NCBI GenBank assembly: GCA_003487265.1
Contig: DNEP01000006.1
Coordinates: 3,276-67,275, forward strand
DNA length: 64,000 nt
Direction: 5' to 3'
DNA from: Minisyncoccota bacterium
GTDB lineage: Bacteria > Patescibacteriota > Microgenomatia > UBA1400 > UBA12028
The translations under genes were made by a program, and so were the position numbers. The notes below the pieces were generated by a model. That model did not search any database, was not told where the DNA came from, and saw only the letters and a list, made by a program, of their open reading frames with translations. Below, piece by piece: positions 20,721-61,023 of this stretch; positions within the stretch are counted from its first letter, which is position 1, and every line of letters begins with the position of its first letter.

Positions 20721-20760
20721 AATGTCATCTTAGCAGGTTCGTGTGATATCTCGCAATGAA

Positions 20761-21456: not shown

Positions 21457-21465
21457 AGTGGTAGT

Positions 21466-22515: not shown

Positions 22516-22580
22516 ATACTTTCATTGTAGCAGAAAGGTAATATGCTCATGCGAATAATATACTTTCATATGGTGGGGAA

Positions 22581-23594: not shown

Positions 23595-26440
23595 TCTTCC
23601 TCCTGTTGTGCGCCTTCGGTGTTTTGCGATGCGTCGGGGGAACAAGAAGATGTGACATAATCATTTATCGCAACGTCCGGATCGGGAACGGCCTCAAGAA
23701 TATTGATCCCTAAGGCTTCATAATGAAGGTGATTCCCGGTGGAATTTCCAGTTGAATCGGTTTTTCCAATAAGATCTCCAACTTGTATAGACATGGAACT
23801 GTTTTCTGGCATTCCAGCGAAGTTTAAAAGGTGGGCAAAAATAAACACAAGACCGTCGTCGGAAAGGAGAACGACATGCTTTCCATATCCTGGGTCAAGT
23901 CCATTACCCTCTGCATAAAACAGCGCTTTACCAGAAAATGGGGCGTACACAGGTTCATCTGCTCCAAGCACAATGTCGAGCGCAGATCCAGGCCCAGAAA
24001 CATATTCTCCAGATATGTTTGGAATTGAGGATGTGTACACGGCGTGGGGATCTCCGTTAGTGTAGAATTCCCCCAACTGCGTAACTGTTCCACTTACAGG
24101 CCAGCATCCCACACTTGCAACCCCTTGACCGTGAAGTGTTGAGGTGGGGTCAAGCATCATAATATCCGACTGATTTGCGGTGTTTGCGGTAAAAATACGA
24201 ACCGCGATTAACGCCGGAATGGTGATTGCCATTCCAGATGATGCTGAAAAGATAGGTGATTTGCTTGCAATCGAAGCGCCGACCGAACCCAACCCACTTG
24301 CTCCACCCATCGCCCCCTGTCCTCCAACCGCTCCTGCAACTTTTGAGCCACCCGCAACTCCCGCACTCGTCGCTCCCCCTCCTCCGCCCCCTCCACCCAA
24401 AAATGACATGAGTTTCATTGCCCCCATAGCCATTGCGAGCAAACCACTTGCTATAAGTGCAAGCAAACTCAGCAAGATTTTTACAAGCTTTCCCAATCGG
24501 GAAACAGTGTTGAGAAGAAAATCTTCTGTGGCCTCTCCAACAATGGGAATTTTTCTTAACAACTCAGCATATTTAAACGTCTGGTCTAGCGCGGGAATTG
24601 CCCCCGCTCCCCCAGGGATAAAAGTGAGTGCGGTGGTAAGTGCTTTTTTTCCAAGTTCATAATCCGCTTCGTTAAATTCTCTATTTTGCGCTGTGCTTTC
24701 TCCAGAAATTGCAGGAAGCGCGCCAAACGAATCTGGTTCAGAATAAAAGAAATCAAAATCTTTACCAAAAAACTCACCAGCCGATTCAAGAGAAGTTGAA
24801 CCATGATAATACGCGAGAAAACGCTGCCTTTGTTCTTCGGTGGCCGTTGCCCACGCGTGTTGGGTGCCCAAAATTTTCCCCATTTTATACTTGAGTGCAC
24901 GTTGTGCAGAGGAGAATTCTCGACGTTCCCTCTCATTTTCTTCTGCTTGTAGTTTTGCTTGATTTTCAAGTGCATCTCTTCGAATGTACATTCCGCGAGA
25001 CACAATGCGATATCCCTGAAGAAAAACATCTTCCTCAAGTCCTTTGAGTGAGTTTTGATCGAGTGGGAGTGGAGAATGTACTGCGTTATTGTGTGTGTCA
25101 CGCGCAACACTGTTTCGCACGAGTCGAATATATGCGCTAAATGACTCTGCCCAATCTGTATCATAAATGGTGTGCAAGAAGGGGAGAATGCGCGACCGTT
25201 CTTCGTCGGTTAATAAATCTTCAAAAATTCTCTCAAATTGTTTTATGTTAATCGTGTCGATGGTGTGTCCAGAGATTGCCAAGGTTTGGAGTCGAACCAT
25301 AATTCTACGAATGTCGGACTCGGGAATGTTTGCTTTTTGCAAAAGTTGTTCAAGTTGTTCCTCCATAAAAGCTGTTGACGCTTGAGTGGTCCACCCAGCT
25401 TTTTCGAGTTTTTTCTGATCGATGTTTTGAAGAACTTTGCCCGCAGTTTCATCTTCAATAATTGCTTTTACAAGATCCTCAATCTTGGGAGGTTCAACGT
25501 TATTTTTTGCAAGCGAGGTGAGCTGTGTTTTGAGCGACAGTTGAAAATGTGCATCAAGTGAGAGTCGCTGCAAACATTGGATGTACAGTTTTTGCCGTCC
25601 GTCAAACGAGGTGAGCGTGCGAATCAAATCTTCACCGGTGAGTTGTGATAACTCAAATAAAACTATATTTGAGGTTGCGGGAAGGAGGTCGCTGATAAAC
25701 TTTTCGCGTTCTTGATCGTCGGTTATGCCGTATGAAATCGCTAGTCGTGCAAGAAGTGACTGTCGAACGAGGGTAACCTGATTCCGAAGCTCTCTGTCGG
25801 ACTTTAAGATGTCTGTTAACGAAAGATTTTGTTTTTCTTCTTCTTTTTCTCGCTTTTCTTCTTCTTTTTTGTCTTTCTCTTGCATTGCGGGGATCGCAAT
25901 CCCAGCGGATCTCGGTTGATCGCCTGCCGCCACAGGTTGTTCCCCAACCGCCGCCTTTTCTTCTTCGGTTTGTGGCGATCGCAATTCTTCTTCTGATAAA
26001 TCATGCGCTTCCCGCGCAATTTCAATAAGCGTTTCAGCCTCGCGCAACTGTGTGAGAAGATCTGAAAGTTTTTGATCGGGAGAGAGGCGACGTTCTATAC
26101 TGTATTCTTCAAAAATTTCATGCCCGAACAAATCATGATCGACTTTTTTTGGAATAATATAACGAATGGTGAGAATGAGCACCCAAAGTTGATTAAATGA
26201 CAACCTTCCCAGCGTTTGATCGTCGGGGTGATCAATCATCTCGCGAAGCATTGCTTTGTATCCACCGGAGGTTTGAATGCGGGATAAAACGCCCAACGAA
26301 CGATCCGCGAGATCATATGATCGCTTCATGTAGTCGCGCAACGCATACGCGACCTTACTTATGTTTTCATCTTGAAGGTGTTCGCGGGTAAAAAATGATC
26401 GAATTGGCGCGCTATCCAGCATACGCGTATTGTACCGCAT
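23591..26440 (-). CDS. Large membrane protein with a C-terminal M23 (LytM) peptidase domain
   Basis: 949 aa. The C-terminus 'GYGKHVVLLSDDGLVFIFAHLLNF...IGKTDSTGNSTGNHLHYE' matches the M23 zinc-site H-x-x-x-D ... H-x-H arrangement. A poly-Gly/Ala segment ('GGGGGGGGATSAGVAGG...') is flanked by two TM helices. The N-terminal ~600 aa are helical with a KE-rich coiled coil. Confidence 0.65.
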   Translation of the reverse strand: MRYNTRMLDSAPIRSFFTREHLQDENISKVAYALRDYMKRSYDLADRSLGVLSRIQTSGGYKAMLREMIDHPDDQTLGRLSFNQLWVLILTIRYIIPKKVDHDLFGHEIFEEYSIERRLSPDQKLSDLLTQLREAETLIEIAREAHDLSEEELRSPQTEEEKAAVGEQPVAAGDQPRSAGIAIPAMQEKDKKEEEKREKEEEKQNLSLTDILKSDRELRNQVTLVRQSLLARLAISYGITDDQEREKFISDLLPATSNIVLFELSQLTGEDLIRTLTSFDGRQKLYIQCLQRLSLDAHFQLSLKTQLTSLAKNNVEPPKIEDLVKAIIEDETAGKVLQNIDQKKLEKAGWTTQASTAFMEEQLEQLLQKANIPESDIRRIMVRLQTLAISGHTIDTINIKQFERIFEDLLTDEERSRILPFLHTIYDTDWAESFSAYIRLVRNSVARDTHNNAVHSPLPLDQNSLKGLEEDVFLQGYRIVSRGMYIRRDALENQAKLQAEENERERREFSSAQRALKYKMGKILGTQHAWATATEEQRQRFLAYYHGSTSLESAGEFFGKDFDFFYSEPDSFGALPAISGESTAQNREFNEADYELGKKALTTALTFIPGGAGAIPALDQTFKYAELLRKIPIVGEATEDFLLNTVSRLGKLVKILLSLLALIASGLLAMAMGAMKLMSFLGGGGGGGGATSAGVAGGSKVAGAVGGQGAMGGASGLGSVGASIASKSPIFSASSGMAITIPALIAVRIFTANTANQSDIMMLDPTSTLHGQGVASVGCWPVSGTVTQLGEFYTNGDPHAVYTSSIPNISGEYVSGPGSALDIVLGADEPVYAPFSGKALFYAEGNGLDPGYGKHVVLLSDDGLVFIFAHLLNFAGMPENSSMSIQVGDLIGKTDSTGNSTGNHLHYEALGINILEAVPDPDVAINDYVTSSCSPDASQNTEGAQQEEE

Positions 26441-33898: not shown

Positions 33899-35548
33899 CT
33901 ATTTCAGATCTTCAATTGGAATATCTGCGTAGCCCTCTGGGAATGAAGTTTGTGGTGCGTCAGTGTATGTATTTTCAACTCCAGAGCTTGTCTTCGATTG
34001 AAGATTCTTTTCCTGTAATCCTTTATAAACGCGAGTTCCATACTTCCCACCTCCCATAAACACACCATCTTTCATCCATCCTGGGGTGGACTTCACAAAC
34101 TTCGTTCCACCTGCCAGACCGCCGGCGCCGGGGATTCTGCTCCATTCCATGCCGGGAATAATCTTGTCGCCTTCCCAACCTTTAGTCAAATTCTTCTGAA
34201 TTTCTGGGATGTATTTTTCAAAGAAGCCTTCTTTGGCTCCGGACATTTCCTTTGCGATCTTGATGGAGGAGGGGAGCATCATGAGAATTCCGAGTGCGAT
34301 CAGCGCTTGGGTGGCTCGCACGGCCTCCTGTGTGGAGGCGTTTCTTCCATCTGAAATCAGTGGGGGCATAAATCCACCAGATGTTGATTGATATCCGATA
34401 TCGCCTTTTCCAAATCCTCCAAGTGTCATCGCGAGTAACAGCATCACGAGTACGACGGGGAATGGGAGAAGGCGACCGATCATATTCTTGATCCACTGCA
34501 TAAACCCACCCCCTTGCTCGAGAAGCGTGTTCAGCGCAAGCTCGATTGGTGAAAAAATCAAAGAAACAAGAAAACCAACATACGACTTTACCAGTTCAAA
34601 CCACGTTTGAATGACAACAAACAGCAACGCAATGGAAAGGACAACATTCATCAAAATATTTGAGGTGAGCGAAAGCGCAGAAGAAAACCATTTAATCACT
34701 TCTGGCCCAGAAAGGACGCCGTCGACCATATCACCAACGCCGCTACCAATTGTTTGAATCATGGATCCGTTTGTGCCGCCACCATTCCATACCGCTCCCC
34801 AACCGATTGCGAAGATGCTTTGCGAAAATGCGATCTCGGTTAAGGAGACTTCGACTCCGCCGATTTTTGGATTGTTCATCAAACCAGAAAAGATTCCAAC
34901 AAATAAGTACATCGTCACGTACATCAAATCAACAATTAATCCGGCAATGGCGTAGGAAAAAGTTACAATGATCAAGCTGACAACAACGCGCGGGATTGCG
35001 GTTGCAACGGTCATCACGGCTTGGCCGCCGAGTTTTTGGCGGAAAATAATCGCAAACCCAATCACCACAAAAAATAATGCATAAAATCCGTATGCGACGT
35101 TCAAAAATGTTTTCCAGATTGGAAGAATGGGGGTGAGACTCGCAAAACCAACGCCTCCCACACTTTGTGCGTACGCGGGAGGTGCAAACTTTGAGTGTTG
35201 CGCTAAATCTTGAACGTATTGGCCAACGCCCGCGGGGGGAGTGCGATACATAAACGCAATTGCCCGACCAAATCCAGAAATCGCGCTGTCCTTTGATCCA
35301 CCAGTCGTGTTTGCAATTGAGGCCATATCAAGTAAGAATCCGGTTTTACGCCAACACTCCATAGAAAGGGAGCCTGTTTGCTGACAATGATCATATGCAG
35401 ACTCAGCTGAGTCCATCGTGGGAAAATTGTATTTTTCATCTTCTTGTGCGTATGTTGTTGGAACAGAAACAATAAGTGACAGGAGAATGCCCGAAAAAAA
35501 GATCGCTCCCATTGTAAACACACTAATAAATCGGCGCATACTCACCAT
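33899..35548 (-). CDS. Polytopic membrane protein, VirB6/TrbL-like candidate
   Basis: 549 aa. A signal-peptide-like N-terminus is followed by a periplasmic segment and then 6 or more TM helices rich in G/A/I/L/V ('VMTVATAIPRVVVSLIIVTFSYAIAGLIVDLMYV...'). This is the VirB6/TrbL-type topology. Confidence 0.45.
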   Translation of the reverse strand: MVSMRRFISVFTMGAIFFSGILLSLIVSVPTTYAQEDEKYNFPTMDSAESAYDHCQQTGSLSMECWRKTGFLLDMASIANTTGGSKDSAISGFGRAIAFMYRTPPAGVGQYVQDLAQHSKFAPPAYAQSVGGVGFASLTPILPIWKTFLNVAYGFYALFFVVIGFAIIFRQKLGGQAVMTVATAIPRVVVSLIIVTFSYAIAGLIVDLMYVTMYLFVGIFSGLMNNPKIGGVEVSLTEIAFSQSIFAIGWGAVWNGGGTNGSMIQTIGSGVGDMVDGVLSGPEVIKWFSSALSLTSNILMNVVLSIALLFVVIQTWFELVKSYVGFLVSLIFSPIELALNTLLEQGGGFMQWIKNMIGRLLPFPVVLVMLLLAMTLGGFGKGDIGYQSTSGGFMPPLISDGRNASTQEAVRATQALIALGILMMLPSSIKIAKEMSGAKEGFFEKYIPEIQKNLTKGWEGDKIIPGMEWSRIPGAGGLAGGTKFVKSTPGWMKDGVFMGGGKYGTRVYKGLQEKNLQSKTSSGVENTYTDAPQTSFPEGYADIPIEDLK

Positions 35549-35627: not shown

Positions 35628-38228
35628 ATGCGCACGCGAGGTATTTTGTTGATGATTGTCTCTTCGAGTTTTCTTGTTGTAATGGCGTTTTTTCGTCTTT
35701 CTTTTCCATATTCCGCGCATGCGGTGGTCGAAAAATCCATTCCGTTTATTTTTCCTGGGCCCGATGATGCGTTTTTGAACTGTTCTGGTGATAAAGAAGA
35801 ATGTTTTCGAGAGTCCGCCTCACAGTACATTATGACGTGCTCTCCAGAAATCAAGTTGCAGGCGCAGGTTGATCCTGAAAAAATCAATGAACCTATTATG
35901 ATTGACGGAACAGCAACAACACTTGCGGAATATTGTGGAACTGATCCAGAAAATGCAAACTGCGTGTTCAATCCCGTAAGTGGATCGGTGACAAGTCTTG
36001 TACCGAAGTCCGCGAATACCTCACTGTATCGCACAACACAATCTTCGGGGAAGGTACTGAAGGGGAGAACGGAAAGTCTGGAAGGTTTTTTGGCGGGAGA
36101 TGCGGATCCCGAAACGATATTTGATGCAGGTCCATCAAGAAAAATCCAAACCGTGCAACAAAACTGTTCACAGAGTATTCGCTATCTTCTTGCGGTTGAA
36201 TCACTTTGCCGAGAAGAAACGCAGCAAGGCGAGTTTTCCCCAGGGTTCCAGACGCAAAGCGTTATTGATCAATTTTTGAATCAATTTAGTCAGCAGTTCC
36301 AAGGGTGTTCACTTAACGAAAAGATTGGAGATACTTCGTACGCTGAGTTGTTGAGCGCTGTTCGAGAGCGAGCCGGCGGTGAAGGAAAAGAGGAGTTGTA
36401 TTGTCGTTTACCCGAATACCTCGATCCCGACTCTGCGGCAAATAATGACTTGGGAAAGAAGCAGGAATACATTGATAGAGCAAGCAAAATAGACAGTCTG
36501 CGCCCAATCTTGGATCGCGCGTTTTCAAAAGGATACTTGGCAATCGCCAATCAAAAAGGAACGGTGTATTCGGTGATTCCCGTGCTAATTCCTTCGAGTT
36601 TGGGATTGTATGAACAAAACTTTCCCGTGCTTTCTGGTTCAAACAATGTCGGGTTTAATGGACCGCTTCGACAATTAATGAGTATGTATATTACTCAAAG
36701 TCAACTGATGGCGATGCAAGACCAACAAAATCTTGCACAAGAAAAGATTGCGCAAACCATGCGTGCAATCGACAATGAACAACTTGATATAAGTGCGTCT
36801 CCGTACATTGATCCAAATTTTTGTTCAAATCCAAGTACCGACGCGCAAAAAATCGCGTGCCTTTTTGCAGACCGCATAAATGCTGGAATTGCCAACAATG
36901 AGTTTGAAGGACCGGATGGAAATACAACCTGTACATTTTCACCTACAAAAGCCGATGCGGAAACAGCAAAAAAACTGTATTCATCTACGAAGCCGAACTT
37001 TTTAACCACACTGTTTTCCTTTTTTTCACCACCCGATGAATCGTTTTCTGGCACACCTGTTGTATCGCAACCTCAGGTACAAAATGATTCCTCAATTCGT
37101 TCGTTTTTGCTTGTTCCATGCGCCGATTTTTGTTTGATTCGATATACAGAAAAAGCTTTGTTTGGTGCGATGGCGGACACAAACTATGCTTCAAACATCG
37201 AACAACACATCAAAGAAGGAAACTATAAAAGCAATGGCTTTTTGCGATTGTCTGGCATTGCTCCAAAGATCACCTCGTACGTATCCGAAAAAACTTTTCC
37301 TTCTGTTTCTGGATCTCCTGTAACAATTTCTGCGGAGATTGTGCCAACAGGAGACGCAAATCCGTTGATGTTTGGAGGATGGCTTGCTCAGTTGTTTTAT
37401 CTTTACACCGCGGGAGTGACCGCGGATGTAGATTCGCCAGCAAGAGCAGAAACATATCCCACACTTGAAACATACTGGACATCATTCAAAAGCGAATCAT
37501 CGCAGTCAACGGGGACATTTGAGTATTGTTCAGATTACAAAGATCCGAATGATGAAAATGCGTGGATCACTGTTGACGTTCCCACGATCCCAGAAATTAA
37601 ACAGCTCGCCTGTTCCACTGCAGAAAAATACAACGTTCCCGCCTCGATGCTTTGGGGAATATTTCAAATTGAGTCGGGATATGACAACACAAATGTGAGT
37701 TATATCAATATTGCATCGCGCCTCGATCCTGATGTAACAACCTACGCGTGTTCTTTGCAAACAGATGGAAGTTTTAAGCCATTAAATCTCATGGTCAACG
37801 ATTGTCGTGTGAATCTTCCCGAGTTTTTTCCAGATGCGAATCCTCCGCTTTCGGCGCTCCCCGCAAATGGCGAGTCAGAGTTTGTTCGGGGAAGAAATGT
37901 GTGCGAAATCGAAGTAGCGTTCGATGTGATTGCGCAAAGTCTTGCGACCTACAGTAAGGCGAAAACTTTCCAATATCCCGCAGGATCAGCGAAAGCGGGA
38001 ACGCCAAATTGGTACTGGTTGGCTGGTCAGTTTGGTGTTGGCGGAATTATTCAAGAATTTAAACAACAAGAAGAACCATACAAATGCGCCATCCCCGAAG
38101 GTGGTCCGTATGAAAAATGGGCGCATGTAAGCGGGTGTTATGAAAATCAACAAACGCTTTCTGGGGCAAATGTCGATTACTGTACTTGTTTAGTTGAAAA
38201 CTTCCCATTGGATTGTTCAAGTTTATAA
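35628..38228 (+). CDS. Secreted Cys-rich 866-aa protein with a lysozyme-like (SLT-type) motif
   Basis: N-terminal signal peptide 'ILLMIVSSSFLVVMAFFRLSFPYSAHA' and more than 25 Cys residues. The segment 'ASMLWGIFQIESGYDNTNVS' resembles the catalytic E-S block of lytic transglycosylases; this assignment is weak. Confidence 0.4.
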   Translation: MRTRGILLMIVSSSFLVVMAFFRLSFPYSAHAVVEKSIPFIFPGPDDAFLNCSGDKEECFRESASQYIMTCSPEIKLQAQVDPEKINEPIMIDGTATTLAEYCGTDPENANCVFNPVSGSVTSLVPKSANTSLYRTTQSSGKVLKGRTESLEGFLAGDADPETIFDAGPSRKIQTVQQNCSQSIRYLLAVESLCREETQQGEFSPGFQTQSVIDQFLNQFSQQFQGCSLNEKIGDTSYAELLSAVRERAGGEGKEELYCRLPEYLDPDSAANNDLGKKQEYIDRASKIDSLRPILDRAFSKGYLAIANQKGTVYSVIPVLIPSSLGLYEQNFPVLSGSNNVGFNGPLRQLMSMYITQSQLMAMQDQQNLAQEKIAQTMRAIDNEQLDISASPYIDPNFCSNPSTDAQKIACLFADRINAGIANNEFEGPDGNTTCTFSPTKADAETAKKLYSSTKPNFLTTLFSFFSPPDESFSGTPVVSQPQVQNDSSIRSFLLVPCADFCLIRYTEKALFGAMADTNYASNIEQHIKEGNYKSNGFLRLSGIAPKITSYVSEKTFPSVSGSPVTISAEIVPTGDANPLMFGGWLAQLFYLYTAGVTADVDSPARAETYPTLETYWTSFKSESSQSTGTFEYCSDYKDPNDENAWITVDVPTIPEIKQLACSTAEKYNVPASMLWGIFQIESGYDNTNVSYINIASRLDPDVTTYACSLQTDGSFKPLNLMVNDCRVNLPEFFPDANPPLSALPANGESEFVRGRNVCEIEVAFDVIAQSLATYSKAKTFQYPAGSAKAGTPNWYWLAGQFGVGGIIQEFKQQEEPYKCAIPEGGPYEKWAHVSGCYENQQTLSGANVDYCTCLVENFPLDCSSL

Positions 38229-38255
38229 CGACAATCGTTCGGAAGTGCGATGTTT

Positions 38256-38696
38256 TTACGGTTGATAAATAGTGAACTGCATGATCGAGGTGACGCCGGT
38301 AAAGTTCGACAAAAACAGCATAATCAACCACGAAGAAATGGCAACCAAAATTCCCAGTAGTGCGAAAGAAAGCGTTTTCTTTCCCGCCTCGGTCATTTTT
38401 GGGTTTCCCCCGCTAAGTAAAAAGGTGAATGCGCCAACAATTAACATAACAAATGATGATAATCCGACTGCCGTGACCGCAATGTTTAATACATTTCGCA
38501 CCACACATTCTAGTCCAGAAAGCGTGGGAATTTCGTATGTTGCTGGGCCGTTTCCTAAATCCATGGTGACTTGTTGAACGCAGCCTTTGGAGGCATTCCA
38601 TTCATTGAGCTTTGTCTGAGCGGAAATTGTTGCGGGTGTTACAAAAGAAACGGAACACAGAACGACGAACGCAATACACGAGGTGAGCAATTTCAT
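38256..38696 (-). CDS. Small two-TM membrane protein, paralog 1 of 7 (putative T4SS-type pilin family)
   Basis: Signal peptide, then a hydrophobic helix, the loop 'LSGGNPKMTEAGKK', and a second helix. This is the same architecture and loop motif as the six downstream paralogs. Confidence 0.5.
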   Translation of the reverse strand: MKLLTSCIAFVVLCSVSFVTPATISAQTKLNEWNASKGCVQQVTMDLGNGPATYEIPTLSGLECVVRNVLNIAVTAVGLSSFVMLIVGAFTFLLSGGNPKMTEAGKKTLSFALLGILVAISSWLIMLFLSNFTGVTSIMQFTIYQP

Positions 38697-38785
38697 ATGT
38701 GTAGTTTAACATACGAACGACCGCTTCTGCATTCGCAGAGATTCGCAAGATGTTTACTAAACCGATTCGAGTACCAATTTGAGTA

Positions 38786-38815
38786 CAAAAAGGCCCCGTT
38801 TTTCAAGCGGGGCCA
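38786..38815 (-). terminator. Rho-independent terminator after the paralog array
   Basis: On the minus strand the GC hairpin GGCCCCGC-(loop)-GCGGGGCC is followed by a T-run. It lies directly after the stop of the 38847-39188 gene. Confidence 0.6.
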
Positions 38816-38846
38816 AGGTTTTCAAAATGTATGAAGTGAGTGTGTA

Positions 38847-39188
38847 TTAGAACGGTCGTTTGATCTGATCGCCGAGGTGAAACACATCAATTCCAAAGAA
38901 GTACGCGACAACTTGCATGAGCGCATATGAAGATGCAACGATTGCGAGTCCGACCAAGGAAGCGGTGATTTTGTTTCGAGCGCTTTCGGTCTTGCTCTTG
39001 TCGCCACCGGACATAATCCACTCAATACCGCCAATAACAAGATATGCGAACACCAAAACAGCCGAGATTAACAAGGCCAAATTGAGAACACTTGTAAAAA
39101 GCAACCCAATATCCGTGATTTTTACGTTTCCATCATTGACTGGGTCAATGGTAATAGTTGGCTTTGCTTGTGCGAGAAGTGCGAGCAT
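38847..39188 (-). CDS. Small two-TM membrane protein, paralog 2
   Basis: '...VIGGIEWIMSGGDKSKTESARNKITASLVGLAIV...FFGIDVFHL' fits the shared family motif. Confidence 0.5.
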   Translation of the reverse strand: MLALLAQAKPTITIDPVNDGNVKITDIGLLFTSVLNLALLISAVLVFAYLVIGGIEWIMSGGDKSKTESARNKITASLVGLAIVASSYALMQVVAYFFGIDVFHLGDQIKRPF

Positions 39189-39270
39189 GTATTCCTCCTT
39201 AGACTATGTGTGCATTTTACCTTGTTTACGTGTTCGGTGCAAGCGGGCGGTGTTTCCCGCGGTTTCGCAT

Positions 39271-39669
39271 TTACAGTACGTAATATTTGTCTTTATCCCA
39301 ATCAACAGGTTTTAGTTGGTCTTGTTTAAGCGGTGTTTTCTCGTTTCCATCCTTTATTTTTTCTAAATTGACGATATTGAGTCCAAAATACCATTGAATA
39401 ATTGCAAAAATGGCGTACGCAGATGCGGTAACCGTGAGCCCAATAATGGCATTGGTGATCATTTGTTTTGCGCTGTCGAGCTTTCCTTTGTCTCCTCCTG
39501 CAAGAACCCACTGTAATCCACCGAAGACTAAATAGAAAAATGTTGCAATACCTGCAATTAACAACAGCGTTCCTGTTGCGGATCCAACGTACTTCCCCAA
39601 GTCAAAAATATTCACAACGGACCCTTCAACTTGCAGGCCTCCTAAAATATCAAGTCGTTGTGTGATCAT
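39271..39669 (-). CDS. Small two-TM membrane protein, paralog 3
   Basis: '...VFGGLQWVLAGGDKGKLDSAKQMITNAIIGLTV...YFGLNIVNL'. Confidence 0.5.
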   Translation of the reverse strand: MITQRLDILGGLQVEGSVVNIFDLGKYVGSATGTLLLIAGIATFFYLVFGGLQWVLAGGDKGKLDSAKQMITNAIIGLTVTASAYAIFAIIQWYFGLNIVNLEKIKDGNEKTPLKQDQLKPVDWDKDKYYVL

Positions 39670-39672
39670 ATC

Positions 39673-40029
39673 TTATTTCCCCAACAATCTTGGAAATACA
39701 GGTTGAAGTAGGCTTAATCCAAAGACGCTTTCCACAAACAACGCGATCGCTGCGACACCCGCCAACACCCCAAAACCGACGATGGACTGCATGATCATTG
39801 TCTTTGCGGAATCAATTTTCCCCTTGTCGCCTGCGGCACTCGTCCATTCCCACCCCGCGCGAAGCAAGTTAACAAGAACCATGATTCCACCAAGAACGAC
39901 CAGCGTTTGCCACAACACCGCAATATATGTGGTGAGTACAAGCGCAGAACTCGCAGTATCCTTCACCGTTTGAAGTTTTGTGGGAAGAACAGGATTTGTG
40001 ATCGCTGCTAAAAGCGTTGTGTTCATCAG
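39673..40029 (-). CDS. Small two-TM membrane protein, paralog 4
   Basis: '...LLRAGWEWTSAAGDKGKIDSAKTMIMQSIVGFGV...VFGLSLLQPV'. I moved the start to the second Met to give a 4-nt overlap with paralog 5. Confidence 0.5.
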   Translation of the reverse strand: MMNTTLLAAITNPVLPTKLQTVKDTASSALVLTTYIAVLWQTLVVLGGIMVLVNLLRAGWEWTSAAGDKGKIDSAKTMIMQSIVGFGVLAGVAAIALFVESVFGLSLLQPVFPRLLGK

Positions 40030-40424
40030 CATCCTCCCCAAATATTGTTCAAGATGAGGATGGGATTCAAGATATCTATTCCAAGAACCCCACCGACAAT
40101 CCCAATGATCGCCTGCGAAACAATCACGACCACAAGTCCAATCGCCCCGTTAATCATTGATTGTTTTGCTGTGTCGATCTTCCCTTTTTCGCCATTCGCG
40201 GTAATCCACGTGAGTCCCGCGAACACCATGTACACCAAGAACATAAGTCCGCCAAGTGCAGTGAAAAATCCAAGAAAAACAGAGATGAGTGTTTCAAGTG
40301 GTCCAGTTGCAACTGCAGAACAATCGCCACTGAAATTTGGGCTCAATTTTTCACTTGCGCTTTTCACAAATCCAGAGAGAGGATTTGTGCTTGCTTCTAG
40401 TGCTAGTAACTTCTGTAACATCAT
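40026..40424 (-). CDS. Small two-TM membrane protein, paralog 5
   Basis: '...VFAGLTWITANGEKGKIDTAKQSMINGAIGLVV...VLGIDILNPI'. Confidence 0.5.
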   Translation of the reverse strand: MMLQKLLALEASTNPLSGFVKSASEKLSPNFSGDCSAVATGPLETLISVFLGFFTALGGLMFLVYMVFAGLTWITANGEKGKIDTAKQSMINGAIGLVVVIVSQAIIGIVGGVLGIDILNPILILNNIWGGC

Positions 40425-40431
40425 TGTTTCC

Positions 40432-40770
40432 TTATGGCGTGACTAGTTTTGGATTGAGGAAGTACGTGGCGTTTCCAAACAACACCCATCCAATAATACC
40501 CATGATAATCGGTGCAGAGACTAACAACAACAACCCCAATATGCTCATGTTGAATTTTTGCATCACTTTTTCGTGTGTTTTTGTATCACCGTTCGAGGTG
40601 ATGTACTGAAATCCTGCGAATACAATGTTAAACAATGCGATTAAGCCACCTACGACTGAAACAAAGACCATCATATTATTGATGAATAGAATGATCTGTC
40701 CACTTGTCCCATAACCGTCTAACGGTGAAGGTTGTGTGATTGTTCCAAAAAATCCATATAGCATAGTCAT
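40432..40770 (-). CDS. Small two-TM membrane protein, paralog 6
   Basis: '...VFAGFQYITSNGDTKTHEKVMQKFNMSILGLLL...LFGNATYFLNP'. Confidence 0.5.
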   Translation of the reverse strand: MTMLYGFFGTITQPSPLDGYGTSGQIILFINNMMVFVSVVGGLIALFNIVFAGFQYITSNGDTKTHEKVMQKFNMSILGLLLLVSAPIIMGIIGWVLFGNATYFLNPKLVTP

Positions 40771-40779
40771 ATTGTACCA

Positions 40780-41127
40780 TTAGATCGCTGGGTTAAGGAT
40801 GTCAAATCCTGCACCGAAGAATACGAGTGACAAGATCTGAACAATCCAATACGCCCCGATTACAAGGAGAAATCCAATAAGCGCGGTTTGAATCGTTTTT
40901 GACCCTTTTTCGAGTCCTTTTGGATCACCTCCAGATGCGACAATGGTGATTCCACCAAACACAAGCATAACAAAGATGATTAACCCACCAAACAGAAAAA
41001 TGTTTGGTAAAAACACATTGATAATGCTCGCGGGATTGGGAAATTTTGAGTCAATAGTTGCCCCAGTATTCGAGTTTAAGATGAGTTCTTGTTTGAAATC
41101 AACGACGGCAAGCAACGATCTGGACAT
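40780..41127 (-). CDS. Small two-TM membrane protein, paralog 7
   Basis: '...VFGGITIVASGGDPKGLEKGSKTIQTALIGFLL...FFGAGFDILNP'. Confidence 0.5.
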   Translation of the reverse strand: MSRSLLAVVDFKQELILNSNTGATIDSKFPNPASIINVFLPNIFLFGGLIIFVMLVFGGITIVASGGDPKGLEKGSKTIQTALIGFLLVIGAYWIVQILSLVFFGAGFDILNPAI

Positions 41128-41146
41128 ACGAATATCTTAGCATATT

Positions 41147-41536
41147 TCAGAAAATCTGAGGGGGTTGCGTGCTTGTTTGTGTTTCTGCCGAGCCCGATGC
41201 CTGTTGCGCCGTTGAAGGCGAGGGTTTTGGGGTTGGGCTCCCCTGCGTTGCAACGTCGAGTGCGATCGGAAAAGATGACAACTCGTCTTGTGTGTATTGA
41301 CGGCGTTGATCAACATCGCGAATCGTGTTTTTGTCAATTGTGTCAGGTAATTTTTTTGTTTGTTCTTGAATTTCGGCAGGAAGGGTATATTTTTTTGCGT
41401 TTATCGACAGAGACACCGCGATCCACAGAATAACGGTGATGATACCAATAATGCCAATCATGGCGTATTCTCGACTATGCGTTACATATGCCAAGAAAGA
41501 TTGATCTTTTGGAGAGCGTATTTTTTGCGATGTCAT
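41147..41536 (-). CDS. Bitopic membrane protein with a P/S/T/Q-rich C-terminal tail
   Basis: 129 aa with one TM 'IGIIGIITVILWIAVSLSI'. It sits between the PilO-like gene and the paralog array and overlaps the PilO-like stop by 4 nt. Confidence 0.4.
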   Translation of the reverse strand: MTSQKIRSPKDQSFLAYVTHSREYAMIGIIGIITVILWIAVSLSINAKKYTLPAEIQEQTKKLPDTIDKNTIRDVDQRRQYTQDELSSFPIALDVATQGSPTPKPSPSTAQQASGSAETQTSTQPPQIF

Positions 41537-42282
41537 AGTTCAACCTCGTCTTGTTTTTTCTTGATGGTTTTTTCAACTGGTTGCCCAACAAAAAACGCGT
41601 GTACTTCTAACGACGCATTTTGAATGCTCACCTCATCTGCGTTTTTTAGCGTTGCGATGGATACAGATTGGACCTTCATCATGCGATCGGCCTTTTCCAC
41701 TGCTTGAATAAACGATCGGATTTGGGGATAGGTCGCGAGAAGGCGGACCTGAATAACCGCGGAATGAATTTCCCCATTTTTTTCTGGGGCGGGGAGATTT
41801 TCTGGAATGGATGCCATTTGAATAGATGAAAGGCGGATTCCTTGATCGGAACCAATGCGTTCAATCCGTTTTACCACCTCTTCGATCTCGGGAGTGTTTG
41901 GAATGGTGCGATGGAGGTTGTTGATTTGCGCTTTTAATGGCGGAAGTTCGGTTGAAAATGAAGAAAGTACCGAGATTTTTTCTGACAACAACTGTGTTGT
42001 TTTTTGTCGATCCTCGATTTGTTTGAGGAGATCGGACATGGTGAGAAGCGTGGGGCGAATTGCAAGCGTTGCGAGTAAAACAATAGACAGCACCGTCGCG
42101 GTAAGTTCAAGTGTTGTGCGCGAAGAAGACTGGTTTACGAGTCGTTGTGCGGTTTGCTCCGCAATACGCCGAAGGTCGTAAAACGTTGCCTTCGCTTGTT
42201 TTTTTGGGCCAAACGATTGCGGTTGAGGTGCAGAAAATTGAGAAGGAGAGGTTGAGCCGACTGTTTGTGGTGCGTCTGTCAT
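41533..42282 (-). CDS. PilO-like pilus-assembly protein
   Basis: 249 aa. Cytoplasmic N-terminus, single TM 'LELTATVLSIVLLATLAI', a coiled-coil, then a ~120-aa C-terminal domain. This is the PilO/PilN-type bitopic architecture. It overlaps the PilN-like stop. Confidence 0.45.
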   Translation of the reverse strand: MTDAPQTVGSTSPSQFSAPQPQSFGPKKQAKATFYDLRRIAEQTAQRLVNQSSSRTTLELTATVLSIVLLATLAIRPTLLTMSDLLKQIEDRQKTTQLLSEKISVLSSFSTELPPLKAQINNLHRTIPNTPEIEEVVKRIERIGSDQGIRLSSIQMASIPENLPAPEKNGEIHSAVIQVRLLATYPQIRSFIQAVEKADRMMKVQSVSIATLKNADEVSIQNASLEVHAFFVGQPVEKTIKKKQDEVEL

Positions 42283-42824
42283 GATTTTACCTCGAAAGAA
42301 AGAATGAACTGATATCCCATCTCTTTTTCATCATCGTTTCGAACTTGGGAAACCGAAAGTTTTTCAATTTGCGGTGATTTTTGAAGTGTGGTGACAAGAA
42401 GCGCAATATCATCTGCTGAGTTTGCAATTCCCGCAATTTGAAGTTGGGCGCCTTTTTGTTGAATAGTTTTCAGATATACGTTGCGAGGTATCTTTGAACT
42501 CACAACGTCAAGAGCGCGAACAATAGAACCTTGCTTTTCTGTTTGAGAAAGAAATGTTGTTTTTTGTTGGATTGCGCGAACATCCTGCTCCATTGTTCCG
42601 TAGGAGGAGACAATCGCCGATTTTTGGACGAGGGTTGCGTTAAGATCGGTGAGATCTCGGTCGAGCTTGAATCGAGAAGCGATACTCAAGATAACGATAA
42701 ACTCGGTGAAGATGATGAGATGTTTCCCAACCGCAGAAGACCAACTCAGCAAACGACCTACGGGCGTGTCAAGAAAAGGATCTTTTGGAAGTAAGTTGAT
42801 GGATTGGACAGGTTTTGTATTCAT
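42279..42824 (-). CDS. PilN-like pilus-assembly protein
   Basis: The N-terminal 'SINLLPKD' matches the hallmark PilN 'INLLP' motif. It is followed by a TM 'LIIFTEFIVILSIASRF' and a periplasmic domain. I chose the start at the MNTKPVQ codon. Confidence 0.5.
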   Translation of the reverse strand: MNTKPVQSINLLPKDPFLDTPVGRLLSWSSAVGKHLIIFTEFIVILSIASRFKLDRDLTDLNATLVQKSAIVSSYGTMEQDVRAIQQKTTFLSQTEKQGSIVRALDVVSSKIPRNVYLKTIQQKGAQLQIAGIANSADDIALLVTTLQKSPQIEKLSVSQVRNDDEKEMGYQFILSFEVKS

Positions 42825-42895
42825 CGCTCCTCGGCAGGAAGGGTACATGGCGACCATGTATTTATGTATGATACTATATCTCAAAAGATTCTGCT

Positions 42896-43507
42896 ATGAA
42901 CTTCACCCCCCAATTTCAAGAAGAACGTCAAAAAGAGCGCGTGTTTGTTCACGATCTTCGATCTGGGGATGTGCGCGCGGTTGAGGAATGGTATCGCCTG
43001 TATAAACAAAAAATGTTGCGATATGTGAATCAAAAAATCGGCGATTCTCGTGACGCCGAGGAAGTCATGCATGATATTTTCCTTTCCTGTTTAGAAAGTC
43101 TCCCTCTTTTCCATGGTCAGTCGATGCTTTGGACGTGGATGTGCGCAATCGCGCGACACGAGATTGCCGATTATTTTCGCAAAAAATACGCAAAAAAATT
43201 GATCAAATCGATTCCACTTATTGATGCGATTTTACCTCTTGTGGGATCACGTTCGGGGGAAGATACACAAAGCACAACCGAGGAAATCCAACTCGCGCTT
43301 CGGGAGTTGTCGGATCGCGATCGCGAGATTTTGCTTATGAAGTACATTGATAAACTGCACGTGAGTGAAATCGCGAGAAAGTTTGGTGTGAGTCTGAAAA
43401 GCATGGAGTCCTCACTTTTTCGAGCGAGAAAATTATTTCGATCGTTATACGAACGCTCCTGTCGCAATGCGACCGAGGCGGTATTCATGGAAAACACAAA
43501 CGCGTGA
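42896..43507 (+). CDS. ECF-type RNA polymerase sigma-70 factor
   Basis: Region 2 is 'DAEEVMHDIFLSCL' and region 4 is the helix-turn-helix 'KLHVSEIARKFGVSLKSMESSLFRARKLF'. The gene is divergent from the PilN-like gene. Confidence 0.75.
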   Translation: MNFTPQFQEERQKERVFVHDLRSGDVRAVEEWYRLYKQKMLRYVNQKIGDSRDAEEVMHDIFLSCLESLPLFHGQSMLWTWMCAIARHEIADYFRKKYAKKLIKSIPLIDAILPLVGSRSGEDTQSTTEEIQLALRELSDRDREILLMKYIDKLHVSEIARKFGVSLKSMESSLFRARKLFRSLYERSCRNATEAVFMENTNA

Positions 43508-43536
43508 AATAAGCGCGAATACTCGACGAATACATC

Positions 43537-43788
43537 ATGCAGGAAACAACATCAAAAAGAGATAAAAACAATCGAGAGGCAGTCTTCCTTTCTCGTTTGC
43601 GCGAACTCGCCGAAGAACAAACGATTCTTTCAAAAACATCGCCACTGCCCGATTGGTCTGCCCCTCTGGCAAACTGGATTGAAAAACGCGCGTATTGGCT
43701 TATTCCCAGCATCGCATTTTGTTTTTCGATGGTGATCTTTTTGTGGAAGTATCCAACCTTTCTTGAAATGGGAGCACACCTGCGATGA
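43537..43788 (+). CDS. Putative anti-sigma factor (small single-TM protein)
   Basis: 83 aa directly downstream of the ECF sigma gene, with a C-terminal TM 'WLIPSIAFCFSMVIFLW'. The assignment is by position only. Confidence 0.3.
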   Translation: MQETTSKRDKNNREAVFLSRLRELAEEQTILSKTSPLPDWSAPLANWIEKRAYWLIPSIAFCFSMVIFLWKYPTFLEMGAHLR

Positions 43789-44147
43789 ACTTCAAGATGA
43801 ATCTCATGCGCGTTCTTCCGCTTTTCTATAACCCTTTCCTCACCTTGCAGGGGGTGCTGTTTCATCCGTACAAAACATTTCGTGAAATTGCTCGAGAACA
43901 TCGGTGGTACTGGGTTGCTTTTCCTTCTTTACTTTGGATTTTTGGGTTTTTGATTTGGCGTATGCTGTTTTTGTTTGGTGTGTTGCGATTTGGATATGCA
44001 ATGAGCTGGATTTTTTTGTCGCTCTGGTTTACGATCTACTGTTCAATGTACCAAGTGTTTGTGTTGTATCTATTGGTGAGATTTGGAGATGTTAAACTGC
44101 AGATGATGTTACGTAAAAAAGGAAAACATGAAGGCGCAAAAATATGA
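43785..44147 (+). CDS. Hypothetical integral membrane protein
   Basis: 120 aa with 3 hydrophobic helices. Its start overlaps the previous stop and its stop overlaps the idi start. Confidence 0.35.
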   Translation: MNFKMNLMRVLPLFYNPFLTLQGVLFHPYKTFREIAREHRWYWVAFPSLLWIFGFLIWRMLFLFGVLRFGYAMSWIFLSLWFTIYCSMYQVFVLYLLVRFGDVKLQMMLRKKGKHEGAKI

Positions 44148-44767
44148 CACAGGATGCTGATTTGTTGGCCCGCGTTCAGCGCGCGATCGATCCTGACGTT
44201 TTTGCGCGTCTCTCGCAGATGCAGGTTGCATTTGTCGATGAAAACGGAATCGAGATTGGGCAAACCTCGGTGATTGATGCGCATCTTGGTGAAGCAAAAC
44301 GTCATCGCGCCGCTTCGGTCTTTTTATTTTCTGACTCTGGAAAAATGTTGATGCAACAACGAGCAAAACAAAAAATTGTTGGTGGTGAGCTGTGGTCGAA
44401 CACGATCTGTGGGAACGCCCGCCCCAGTGAGTCAAGTGAGGCGTGTGCCCACCGACGGTTGCGGGAAGAGCTGGGAATTGAGGGGGTGGTGCTGGAACAG
44501 GTGGACTCGTTTGAGTATCGCGTCCCATGTGATGCATTTTTTAGCGAGTGGGAGTTTGATACCGCGTTTATCGGCACATATTCAGCAGAACCAACGCCAA
44601 ACCCGCAAGAAGTGATGGGTTGGGAATATCTCTCGTTTGATGTTATTCAGAAACAGCTCGAGGATTATCCAGAAAAGTTTTCCCCGTGGTTTCGCGTATT
44701 TATAAAACGACCGAAAATTCTCGAGATGTTTCACGCTGTATCTAGGCAGATTGTAGAAAAAGAATAG
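44144..44767 (+). CDS. idi: Isopentenyl-diphosphate delta-isomerase (type 1, Nudix fold)
   Basis: 'HRAASVFLFSDSGKMLMQQRAKQKIVGGELWSNTICGNARP' parallels the IDI-1 'HRAFSVF..' and 'W.NTCC.HP' blocks. The Nudix glutamates are in 'HRRLREELGIE'. Confidence 0.7.
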   Translation: MTQDADLLARVQRAIDPDVFARLSQMQVAFVDENGIEIGQTSVIDAHLGEAKRHRAASVFLFSDSGKMLMQQRAKQKIVGGELWSNTICGNARPSESSEACAHRRLREELGIEGVVLEQVDSFEYRVPCDAFFSEWEFDTAFIGTYSAEPTPNPQEVMGWEYLSFDVIQKQLEDYPEKFSPWFRVFIKRPKILEMFHAVSRQIVEKE

Positions 44768-44783
44768 CGCGTGGGGGGTTTGT

Positions 44784-45764
44784 ATGCGAAAAGCAACTGT
44801 TCAATCATCATCTGATGTTGCATTAGTCAAGTATTGGGGGAGAAAAGACGAAGTATTACGTCTTCCAGAAAATGGAAGCATTTCGTTGATTTTAGATTCG
44901 CTGTATTCACAAACAACGGTTGAGTTTCGCAATGATTTGTCGCGGGACGAAGTCACCATTACCGGTCTATCGGAAGAAGGTGAAGAAACGCGCGTTTCAA
45001 AACACTTGGATCGTATTCGCGCATTGGCGGGAGTTCAAACGCGCGCAAAAGTGAACTCGGTAAATAATTTTCCTCCTGCGACGGGATTGTCGAGTAGTGG
45101 ATCGGGATTTTCTGCGCTCACGCGCGCTGGGTTGCTGGCGGCGGGTTTGGATTTGAATGAGCGTGAGATCTCAATTTTGGCGCGACAAGGATCGGGAACG
45201 GCGTGTCGATGCAGTTGTGGAGGAATTGTTGAGTGGAAAGATGGCGACACATCCGAAGCGTCATATGCGGAGTCGCTGTACGCTTCAGATTATTGGGATA
45301 TTCGAGATGTGATTGCGGTTGTTTCCACCGGTCGAAAAGATACTTCTTCAAGTGAAGGACACACGTTGGCGAAAACCTCTCCGTTATATTCAACTCGATT
45401 AGCAAACATTCCCAAAAAACTCTTTCAAGTAAAAGAGTTGTTGGCAAAAAAAGCGTTCGAGGAGTTGGGAGAGGTTGTCGAGCAGGAAGCGCTCGAATTT
45501 CATAGCATTTTATTTACCTCAACGCCATCGCTTTTTATATGGTTGCCAGGAACGATCGAGGTTATTCGTGAGGTTCGTGCGCTTCGTACAGAAGGAGTGC
45601 CCGCATATTTCACGATCAGTACGGGATTTAACGTGCATGTGCTGACGTTGCCGGAATTCGAATCAAAAGTTGAGGAACGGTTGCGCGCATTACCGTCGGT
45701 TATCAATATTTTAAAAAGTAAAATAGGCGATGCGCCAAAAGAACTGCAAACGCATTTGTTTTAG
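44784..45764 (+). CDS. mvaD: Diphosphomevalonate decarboxylase (GHMP kinase family)
   Basis: 'SSDVALVKYWGRKDEVLRLPENGSISL' matches the MVD N-terminal motif 'NIA.IKYWGK.D'. 'PPATGLSSSGSGFSAL' is the GHMP ATP-binding motif. I cannot exclude a phosphomevalonate decarboxylase variant. Confidence 0.65.
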   Translation: MRKATVQSSSDVALVKYWGRKDEVLRLPENGSISLILDSLYSQTTVEFRNDLSRDEVTITGLSEEGEETRVSKHLDRIRALAGVQTRAKVNSVNNFPPATGLSSSGSGFSALTRAGLLAAGLDLNEREISILARQGSGTACRCSCGGIVEWKDGDTSEASYAESLYASDYWDIRDVIAVVSTGRKDTSSSEGHTLAKTSPLYSTRLANIPKKLFQVKELLAKKAFEELGEVVEQEALEFHSILFTSTPSLFIWLPGTIEVIREVRALRTEGVPAYFTISTGFNVHVLTLPEFESKVEERLRALPSVINILKSKIGDAPKELQTHLF

Positions 45765-45772
45765 GACTGTAT

Positions 45773-46471
45773 ATGAACAAACCAATAGATCATATCGCGA
45801 TCATTATGGACGGAAATCGTCGGTGGGCACGCGCACATTCTCTTCCCGAAGTTGCGGGGCACGAGTTTGTGGTGAATCATGTGATTGAGGAGCTCGTTGA
45901 TGAATGTGTAGCGCAACATATTCCATATCTTACATTGTGGGCATTTAGCACAGAAAACTGGAATCGGTCAACACTCGAGGTAAATGCGGTGCTTAATCTT
46001 TTTCGCAAAGCATTTGAAAAAAATGTTCAAGATCTACACAAAAAAGGTGTGCGATTGCTGATGATTGGAGATTTGTCGCGTTTTCCCGAGGATATTCAAA
46101 AAAATGTCGCGCGATGGATTGAAATGTCGAAAGATAATACAAAAATTACGCTGATTATCGCGCTGAATTACGGTGGTCGTGATGAAATTGTTCGTGCGAT
46201 GAAAAAACTTTCTGTTGAGAACTTTCCACCCGAAAAACTGCGCGAAATATCAACCGATTCATTTGGGGAATTCCTCGACACCGCGGGAGTTCCCGATCCC
46301 GATCTCATCATTCGCCCAGGGGGTGAAAAGCGCCTGTCTGGGTTTATGCTTTGGCAAAGTGCGTACGCGGAGTTGTATTTTTCTGATTTGATGATGCCCG
46401 AGTTTCGCACCGAGGCGTTGCGAGATGCAGTTCAAGACTATGGGGAACGTAAGCGGCGTTTTGGAAAATAA
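45773..46471 (+). CDS. uppS: Undecaprenyl-diphosphate synthase (cis-prenyltransferase)
   Basis: 'HIAIIMDGNRRWA', 'LTLWAFSTENWNR' and the C-terminal 'RLSGFMLWQSAYAELYF' cover all UPPS signature blocks. Confidence 0.85.
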   Translation: MNKPIDHIAIIMDGNRRWARAHSLPEVAGHEFVVNHVIEELVDECVAQHIPYLTLWAFSTENWNRSTLEVNAVLNLFRKAFEKNVQDLHKKGVRLLMIGDLSRFPEDIQKNVARWIEMSKDNTKITLIIALNYGGRDEIVRAMKKLSVENFPPEKLREISTDSFGEFLDTAGVPDPDLIIRPGGEKRLSGFMLWQSAYAELYFSDLMMPEFRTEALRDAVQDYGERKRRFGK

Positions 46472-61002: not shown

Positions 61003-61023
61003 AGGCAGTTTTTATTTCTCGTG

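Follow-up and report, generated by a model that had tools for sequence, protein, structure and literature searches.

A PilN–PilO pair and a third conserved gene at the head of a VirB2-like pilin array in the oriC region of a Microgenomatia genome

The closest described counterparts of the genes considered here are the PilM–PilN–PilO(–PilP) assembly of type IVa pili (T4aP), known from Pseudomonas aeruginosa, Myxococcus xanthus (3JC8) and Thermus thermophilus (4BHQ), and the GspL–GspM–GspC assembly from the type II secretion system (T2SS). A third described system, the MPF-FATA-like type IV secretion system (T4SS) of Patescibacteria, has its genes close to dnaA, together with arrays of VirB2-like pilins (Quinonero-Coronel et al., 2025; PMC12102498). 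Here we analyse a stretch of 64,000 nucleotides (the window) that covers oriC and its surroundings in a Microgenomatia (Patescibacteria) genome. In it, genes for PilN, PilO and a small third protein (together, the trio) stand at the head of an array of seven tandem VirB2/TrbC-like T4SS pilin genes.

Patescibacteria live attached to host cells, and in the one lineage tested genetically both type IV pili (T4P) and a T4SS with a pilin array are essential for the host-attached lifestyle (PMC12102498, PMC11623550). The VirB2-like pilins come in arrays of 2-11 genes, notably in Microgenomatia, and are widespread among Patescibacteria close to virB4; neither the origin nor the assembly of these pilins is explained, and VirB1 is mostly absent (PMC12102498). 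The monoderm T4SS from which the system descends is itself without pilins, which is why their assembly lacks an explanation. T4P themselves are reported to be near-universal in the Candidate Phyla Radiation (CPR), across which the PilM, PilN and PilO families reportedly co-localise (PMC6744442). The T4P loci of Saccharibacteria TM7x (PMC11623550), each with PilM–PilN–PilO, and four Microgenomatia loci described below (L095-L098; the prefix L marks the loci of this analysis) show that more than one PilN/PilO pair per CPR genome is possible. Their pilus genes are clustered in the order pilB-pilT-pilC-pilD-pilins-pilM-pilN-pilO, so that the pairs lie directly behind pilM within a T4P locus, whereas the pair in the window is an orphan accompanied by a third conserved gene. 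PilN and PilO in CPR bacteria, and oriC-proximal T4SSs with VirB2 arrays, are already known. In the papers searched, we found no description of the orphan PilN-PilO-small unit as something distinct and widespread, of its usual partnership with an FN3/Big_13 surface protein or of its clade-specific fusion with a pilin array; PilN and PilO are mentioned nowhere in PMC12102498, including its supplementary material.

PilN, PilO and a third bitopic protein precede seven pilin paralogs

The trio and the pilin array occupy the following positions in the window:

42279-42824, minus strand: pilN, PilN-family gene, 181 amino acids from the ATG at 42824 (PF05137)
41533-42282, minus strand: pilO, PilO-family gene, 249 amino acids (PF04350)
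41147-41536, minus strand: 'small', bitopic protein of 129 amino acids (own hidden Markov model (HMM); no database family)
40780-41127, minus strand: pilin p1 (PF18895)
40432-40770, minus strand: pilin p2 (PF18895)
40026-40424, minus strand: pilin p3 (PF18895)
39673-40041, minus strand: pilin p4 (PF18895)
39271-39669, minus strand: pilin p5 (PF18895)
38847-39188, minus strand: pilin p6 (PF18895)
38256-38696, minus strand: pilin p7 (PF18895, 26.6 bits; custom HMM, E=7e-35)

The first two genes encode a true PilN and a true PilO. PilN scores 54.4 bits against the Pfam model PF05137 (cutoff 22.8), and its N-terminus, MNTKPVQSINLLPKD, is followed by a transmembrane (TM) segment. Alternative upstream starts exist at 42857 (ATG) and 42884 (TTG); the family alignment prefers 42824. 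Its INLLPKD tail is cytoplasmic; a single TM segment and a long coiled-coil helix come next, and the ectodomain has the order beta-beta-alpha-beta-beta. An alignment of 24 family members (A1) shows a conserved INLLPKD tail and TM segment, with a family-specific RFKLDRDLTDLN motif after the latter, and the profile built from it matches M. xanthus PilN in PDB entry 3jc8 (E=4e-6). The AlphaFold2 (AF2) model of PilN, with a predicted local distance difference test (pLDDT) score of 83, has a helix at residues 21-110 (TM/coiled coil) and the beta-beta-alpha-beta-beta element at residues 116-179; on this model the ectodomain is predicted to be ferredoxin-like and preceded by a coiled coil. A Foldseek search of the PDB with the model gave GspL-type ectodomains (PulL, EpsL, XcpY) as best matches, and also PilO, PilN and GspM (PulM/EpsM), with target-normalised TM-scores of up to 0.78.

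The role of the INLLP-type motif in PilM binding is established for the PilM:PilN complexes of T. thermophilus and P. aeruginosa. This tail, in the form [IV]N[LH][LIV]P[KQR]D, is retained in most members of both locus classes defined below, and Escherichia coli HofN shares it (INFLPW, in MNPPINFLPW). A profile search for the PilN family returned 347 clusters (50% identity) at E<=1e-30, consisting of stand-alone proteins of about 180-200 amino acids; the best 150 representatives are roughly 130-255 amino acids long and include no fusions.

PilO scores 39.9 bits against PF04350 (cutoff 22) and 17.8 bits against T2SSM_b in Pfam; the NCBIfam GspM model scores it at 27 bits, below that model's cutoff. 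Its C-terminal domain is of the alpha/beta type and is preceded by a TM segment and a coiled coil. When its family profile (A4) was compared with the PDB, the matches were M. xanthus PilO (3jc8, E=7.9e-12), P. aeruginosa PilO (2rjz, E=9e-7) and 5uvr (E=5e-4). A single-sequence AF2 model of PilO had a pLDDT of 55, too low for a fold search, and was not used; its order of secondary-structure elements is compatible with PilO. The preliminary description of this DNA, made from the sequence alone, had proposed both assignments and had named a VirB8/VirB10-like or unrelated bitopic identity as the alternative. That alternative is contradicted by the Pfam, NCBIfam, PDB profile and fold matches; neither the Pfam and NCBIfam results for PilN and PilO nor the fold-search list for PilN contain VirB8 or VirB10.

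Besides its TM segment, the product of the third gene has a tail rich in proline, serine and threonine and a short conserved motif (consensus PLNPxLD...L..RK....EEL..F). It has no match in Pfam, NCBIfam or the PDB. According to a custom HMM, it follows PilO in nearly all of the approximately 170 loci compared below. It takes the gene position of PilP/GspC in diderm systems, with no detectable homology to them.

As the preliminary description stated, the three genes lie on one strand with overlapping stops and starts, sharing 4 nucleotides at pilN/pilO and again at pilO/'small'; a gap of 19 bp separates 'small' from p1. It had counted six paralogs downstream. There are seven, between 38256 and 41127, all of which match PF18895 (T4SS_pilin), three at or above the 26.6-bit cutoff (36.8, 33.1 and 26.6 bits) and four below it. 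With two TM segments each, p1-p7 are VirB2/TrbC-like proteins and not class III prepilins. The seventh, p7, was missed by public gene calls, which place an opposite-strand open reading frame (ORF) of 98 amino acids there instead (L001 13706-14002).

The trio shares with the T4aP assembly the INLLP tail, single TM segment, coiled coil and ferredoxin-like ectodomain, its PilN/PilO family membership by Pfam and PDB profiles, and a pilN-pilO pair with overlapping stop and start. It differs in having no adjacent pilM, pilP or pilQ, in a third gene unrelated to PilP by sequence, and in what follows downstream, which is either an FN3/Big_13 protein or VirB2-like pilins. The likeness to GspL–GspM–GspC lies in the PilN model, which is nearest to GspL periplasmic domains, in the weakly GspM-like PilO and in the arrangement as a trio of bitopic proteins. 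GspL, however, has a large cytoplasmic PilM-like domain, whereas the window PilN has only about 20 residues before its TM segment and thus no GspL-type cytoplasmic actin-like domain. The trio is also without GspE, GspF, GspD and pseudopilins, and it comes from a CPR bacterium of monoderm type. Compared with the Patescibacteria T4SS, the window holds the same system; the difference is the trio heading the array, which is confined to one clade.

Two genomic settings of the trio

A protein search yielded 37 relatives, all from CPR/Microgenomates. The comparison was extended to about 170 loci, assembled from context look-ups, species-representative genomes (80 loci of 123 relatives) and Joint Genome Institute (JGI) metagenomes (80 loci), and annotated with HMMs built from the window and the first loci. 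Two architectures cover essentially all of them, and a classifier assigned 139 loci to class A and 22 to class B.

Most loci by far belong to class A. Here an operon of PilN, PilO, 'small' and a fourth gene, Big13, has lepA, rpsT and murJ upstream of it. No class A locus contains T4SS pilins. Big13 encodes a surface protein of 460-500 amino acids that has a TM segment at its N-terminus, domains of the FN3-like (Pur_ac_phosph_N) and Big_13 types, a linker rich in proline, threonine and serine, and a C-terminus that combines an LPxTG-like motif (LPKSG in L007) with a TM segment. Examples are L007:11716-13230, L009:11670-13103, L010:11759-13144 and L011:11653-13044. Neither the window nor any class B locus has Big13; the seven pilins stand in its place there. 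Among the class A loci seen, L010 alone has a T4SS-type gene close by, a 777-amino-acid DUF87/TrwB_AAD_bind ATPase (VirB4- or coupling-protein-like; L010:17464-19797) about 7 kb downstream of the trio. In three further class A loci (L169, L172 and L174), a gene for an extracytoplasmic function (ECF) sigma factor follows Big13.

Class B comprises the window and every relative with a PilN at least 42% identical to that of the window (L012-L016, L099-L108). It corresponds to a lineage named Pacebacteria / Microgenomates group GW2011_GWC1_46_15 and is monophyletic in a neighbour-joining tree. Its layout brings in three further genes, here with their positions in the window:

42896-43507, plus strand: ECF-type sigma factor (Sigma70_r2, Sigma70_r4_2, Sigma70_ECF), divergent from pilN
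35628-38228, plus strand: p866 (phmmer synteny, class B)
33899-35548, minus strand: p549, polytopic membrane protein (phmmer synteny, class B)

Read in the direction of the operon, the order is ECF sigma (reverse), PilN, PilO, 'small', seven pilins, p866 (reverse) and p549 (forward). The full seven-pilin array, followed by p866 and p549, is present in L013, L014, L016, L099 and L102 as well as in the window organism, and the partial contigs (L012, L015, L100, L101, L103-L108; PilN identity 42-49%) agree as far as they extend. The gap between 'small' and the first pilin measures 19-60 bp across the class, and an ECF sigma gene adjoins pilN in every class B locus. The pilins are positional orthologs with 34-75% identity: each finds its best match at the same position, except p5 of L102. 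Across genomes, p6 stands out as the most conserved (71-75%, against 34-60% in the remaining six) and may represent the major structural subunit, with the remaining pilins variable or minor. Matches to p866 and p549 by phmmer are restricted to class B loci, where the two genes always follow the seventh pilin in this orientation if the contig reaches that far.

No genome accession occurs twice among the 80 genome loci drawn from the 123 relatives, and no second copy of the trio was seen in a class B genome. Because of this lack of a second copy, the trio appears to have joined the pilin array by relocation, not by duplication. PilN-PilO-small is an old stand-alone module, and its fusion with the pilin array is a single derived event that has been stably kept; we take the class A position to be ancestral. 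A chance one-off juxtaposition was discarded, as the architecture recurs in five other loci with position-orthologous pilins. PilN and PilO as general partners of VirB2 arrays were likewise rejected: most trio loci have no pilins, and PMC12102498 with its supplements is silent on both proteins. It is also highly improbable that these are relic genes, decaying or silent in this genome and next to the array only incidentally. Only the absence of partner genes from the window would speak for relics, and against them stand intact ORFs, overlapping stops and starts, conserved motifs, a confident PilN model and an operon conserved across diverged genomes.

Signals of transcription were sought with consensus scans. 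A promoter-like site (TTCATA-16-TATAGT, 42873-42900, minus strand) lies close upstream of pilN, in the short divergent region that pilN and the ECF sigma gene share; the latter starts 12-70 bp from pilN, depending on the pilN start chosen. Between 'small' and p1, the scan detected nothing terminator-like. Across 38000-43600 it returned three weak terminator-like sites, fewer than in shuffled sequence (mean 5.7); two of the three fall within the operon and on its own (minus) strand, at about 42103-42091 and 39920-39901.

Many of the species-representative records with this Patescibacteria-specific trio bear the titles 'uncultured Pseudomonadales', 'Gammaproteobacteria', 'candidate division TM6', 'Vitreimonas' or 'Lentimicrobiaceae' (L016, L018, L021 and others; L029; L032; L055), and one protein, P0037, is named as from 'Bathyarchaeia'. 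These records are probably mislabelled or chimeric bins.

Type IV pilus genes and the possible roles of the trio

The preliminary description had found no other T4P genes in the window, and this was borne out. Pfam detected no PilM_2, T2SSE, T2SSF or Peptidase_A24 among the 46 largest ORFs (at least 129 amino acids), HMMs for Microgenomatia PilM, PilB, PilT, PilC and PilD matched none of 382 ORFs of at least 50 amino acids, and a prepilin-motif scan gave 0 matches in the window against 11 in control T4P loci. Of PilB, PilC, PilM, PilD and class III prepilins, which share one locus in a complete T4P system, none is encoded in the 64 kb, and the T4SS region encodes no PilM-like or T2SSE-like protein. 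Nor does pilN directly follow pilM, as it would in a T4P operon: there is no PilM-like ORF in the window or within 10 kb of the trio in the approximately 170 loci. Over the same 10 kb, E. coli Hof seeds, the Microgenomatia HMMs and the prepilin motif detected no T4P gene at all, including pilB, pilC, pilD and prepilins. A PilM or ATPase hidden near the trio was considered and rejected, since searches with E. coli HofB, HofC and HofM seeds, a P. aeruginosa PilM and the Microgenomatia HMMs were all empty across the approximately 170 loci.

Microgenomatia nevertheless possess T4P genes at a separate locus. A synthetic consensus PilM query retrieved thousands of PF11104 proteins, including some from Gottesmanbacteria and Microgenomates, and we viewed four of the corresponding Microgenomatia T4P loci (L095:10001-12510, L096:1090-11565, L097:2078-8337 and L098:1-8375). 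Their order is (pilB-pilT-pilC-)pilD-prepilins-PilX_N-like-PilM, followed by two genes that we call PilN' and PilO', and then by convergent trmD-KH-rpsP-rnc-nusB-recG; pilB-pilT-pilC upstream was seen in L096. PilN', the first gene after PilM, encodes a bitopic protein of 182-197 amino acids (the L096 copy is cut by the contig end) with REINLSF, TINLIRS or DINFLPE at its N-terminus and no Pfam match. PilO', the second, is bitopic and 235-255 amino acids long in the three loci that reach that far, with a PilO match at or just under threshold. Orphan PilOs are matched by a PilO' HMM with E-values as low as 3e-18, and hhalign links PilN' to the orphan PilN weakly (probability 7%). The orphan PilN and PilO score closer to the Pfam models than do PilN' and PilO' from the T4P loci. 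With no or sub-threshold Pfam matches, PilN' and PilO' tend to be missed by automatic annotation; a closed Microgenomates genome has been described with PilM at its single T4P locus and with PilN and PilO not annotated (PMC7143001).

The reading we favour, with a confidence that is about evenly balanced, is that a PilM-dependent alignment-platform module was relocated into the pilin array and is co-transcribed with it, so that pilus-type and T4SS-type functions are expressed together. PilN, PilO and 'small' would then form an inner-membrane alignment platform, vertically inherited across Microgenomatia, with one copy per contig examined. Family membership and the model suggest that PilN and PilO would pair through their coiled coils and ferredoxin-like ectodomains. 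The INLLP(K/Q)D tail of PilN would tether an actin-like PilM encoded elsewhere, as the conservation of the motif and the existence of PilM in Microgenomatia indicate, and 'small', given its strict co-occurrence, may join PilN and PilO in the membrane. In the Pacebacteria-like clade, the trio would have moved to the head of the seven-pilin array, at the far end of the oriC-proximal T4SS region. Gene order, overlaps and short gaps point to trio and pilins being probably co-transcribed from the promoter region shared with the divergent ECF sigma gene. The module would still serve a platform of the pilus type that depends on PilM and has its ATPase and platform partners encoded elsewhere, and its link to the pilins would be co-expression of two cell-surface, host-contact systems, not a common machine. 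We favour this reading because the cytoplasmic tail is conserved and class A is in the majority; the presence of PilM, PilB, PilT, PilC, PilD and prepilins at a separate Microgenomatia locus is also counted in its favour, as is the lack of PilM-like and T2SSE-like proteins in the T4SS region of the window.

Several observations weigh against it. In none of the approximately 170 loci does a T4P gene lie within 10 kb of the trio. All four Microgenomatia T4P loci already have one or more bitopic genes right after pilM, with PilO' in three; if PilN' and PilO' co-occur with the orphan trio, the T4P would not need it. The trio always precedes genes for exported surface proteins in the same operon, and the class B operon is intact while its PilN has diverged to about 45% identity. 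Such retention looks more like functional coupling than neutral adjacency. The T4P-locus pairs, the position before exported proteins and the preserved class B operon keep two further readings alive.

The first of these, distinctly less probable than the reading above, is a true hybrid, in which the platform was recruited in the window's clade as a scaffold in the membrane by which the VirB2-like pilins of the Patescibacteria T4SS are assembled or positioned. This T4SS is derived from monoderm MPF-FATA conjugation machinery, which is normally without a pilin or known pilin-assembly factors. Consistent with such recruitment are the compact class B operon, with its short gap between 'small' and the first pilin and no terminator-like site found in it, and the identical architecture of the complete loci, with which the partial contigs agree. 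The T4P loci own a PilN'/PilO' pair, which would leave the orphan pair free for other work, and in class A the trio likewise precedes an exported surface protein. The specific proposal that the orphan PilN-PilO-small was co-opted as the assembly scaffold for the seven pilins, distinct from the PilN' and PilO' of the pilus proper, we hold to be slightly less probable still. The unexplained origin and assembly of the VirB2-like pilins, with VirB1 usually absent (PMC12102498), leaves room for a true hybrid.

On the other side, most trio-bearing species have no pilins beside the trio, and gene order by itself cannot show a shared machine. The conserved INLLP tail points to a PilM partner, and to our knowledge PilM is present in no T4SS. 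Nor do we know of any experiment or structure that connects VirB2 with proteins of the PilN/PilO fold, which counts against a hybrid. VirB2 arrays, moreover, are common near virB4 across Patescibacteria, yet the survey of these systems never mentions PilN or PilO (PMC12102498). The hybrid machine is a possible lead, not a demonstrated one. The trio is nonetheless a concrete, testable candidate for a factor in pilin assembly or co-regulation. Should co-expression be all that links trio and pilins, the result amounts to a modest point about gene order; a mechanistic link would make this the first chimera of T4P and T4SS components. A true hybrid would explain how an MPF-FATA-type system, ancestrally without pilins, builds a pilin-based surface structure.

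The second, which we consider improbable, is a PilN/PilO-derived envelope module with a role of its own in neither T4P nor T4SS. A candidate role would be the anchoring or export of wall-associated surface proteins near murJ-linked wall synthesis, with the pilins as another exported cargo. The strict separation from T4P genes argues for it, as do the class A linkage to murJ and to an FN3/Big_13 protein that combines a TM segment at its N-terminus with an LPxTG-like anchor at its C-terminus, the family's own RFKLDRDLTDLN signature and its large size as a set of stand-alone proteins. Against it, the proteins score as ordinary PilN and PilO, more canonically than the pairs of the T4P loci, and have kept the INLLP tail; the murJ/rpsT/lepA neighbourhood may be mere conserved gene order. 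We know of no precedent for such a module.

The preliminary description had offered a choice between a novel hybrid and the periphery of a pilus system encoded elsewhere. The identities and the isolation on which it was based stand; the choice itself is too simple. A novel hybrid is not demonstrated, and the periphery of a pilus encoded elsewhere is no clean fit because the separate T4P locus has its own PilN'/PilO'-like pair.

The T4SS core and other genes of the window

ORF listing and Pfam scans place yidC, jag, dnaA and dnaN in the window, and the core of a monoderm-type T4SS adjoins dnaN directly on the minus strand (18831-26440):

16045-17493: dnaA
17538-18824: dnaN
18831-20720, minus strand: VirB4-like protein (Pfam P-loop_TraG, AAA_10 and CagE_TrbE_VirB in the T4SS-core scan; NCBIfam VirB4 N-terminal match below cutoff)
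20761-21456, minus strand: TrsD-like protein (NCBIfam TrsD match below cutoff)
21466-22515, minus strand: PrgI/VirB3-like protein (Pfam PrgI)
22581-23645, minus strand: bitopic protein of 354 amino acids within the T4SS core
23591-26440, minus strand: M23 peptidase-domain protein (Pfam Peptidase_M23)

With VirB4, TrsD, PrgI/VirB3 and VirB2-like pilins near dnaA, the region is an MPF-FATA-like T4SS locus of the Patescibacteria type. This holds for the surroundings of the trio; PilN and PilO are not among the known components of a T4SS. The T4SS-like context that had been suggested for the paralog array is confirmed by these genes, together with the M23 hydrolase, next to dnaA and dnaN.

Between this core and the pilins, neither p866 nor p549 matches a Pfam or NCBIfam profile. 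The polytopic p549 is a candidate VirB6-like channel component. Near the C-terminus of p866, the sequence MLWGIFQIESGYD resembles the catalytic motif of lytic transglycosylases; an assignment of p866 to these enzymes from its 'IESGYD' motif was dropped, as no profile support was found.

On the other side of the trio, two small membrane ORFs (83 and 120 amino acids, the latter weakly Yip1-like) come after the ECF sigma gene, and all three (42896-44147) are divergent from pilN; they may form a sigma/anti-sigma set. Beside them, a Nudix/IDI-like gene, a diphosphomevalonate decarboxylase gene and an undecaprenyl-diphosphate synthase gene (44144-46471) represent mevalonate-route isoprenoid genes in a CPR genome, a neighbourhood that L012 shares. 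Further along, at 60184-63444, a sortase gene adjoins a gene for an 806-amino-acid protein with a weak Baseplate_J-like match (24.6 bits).

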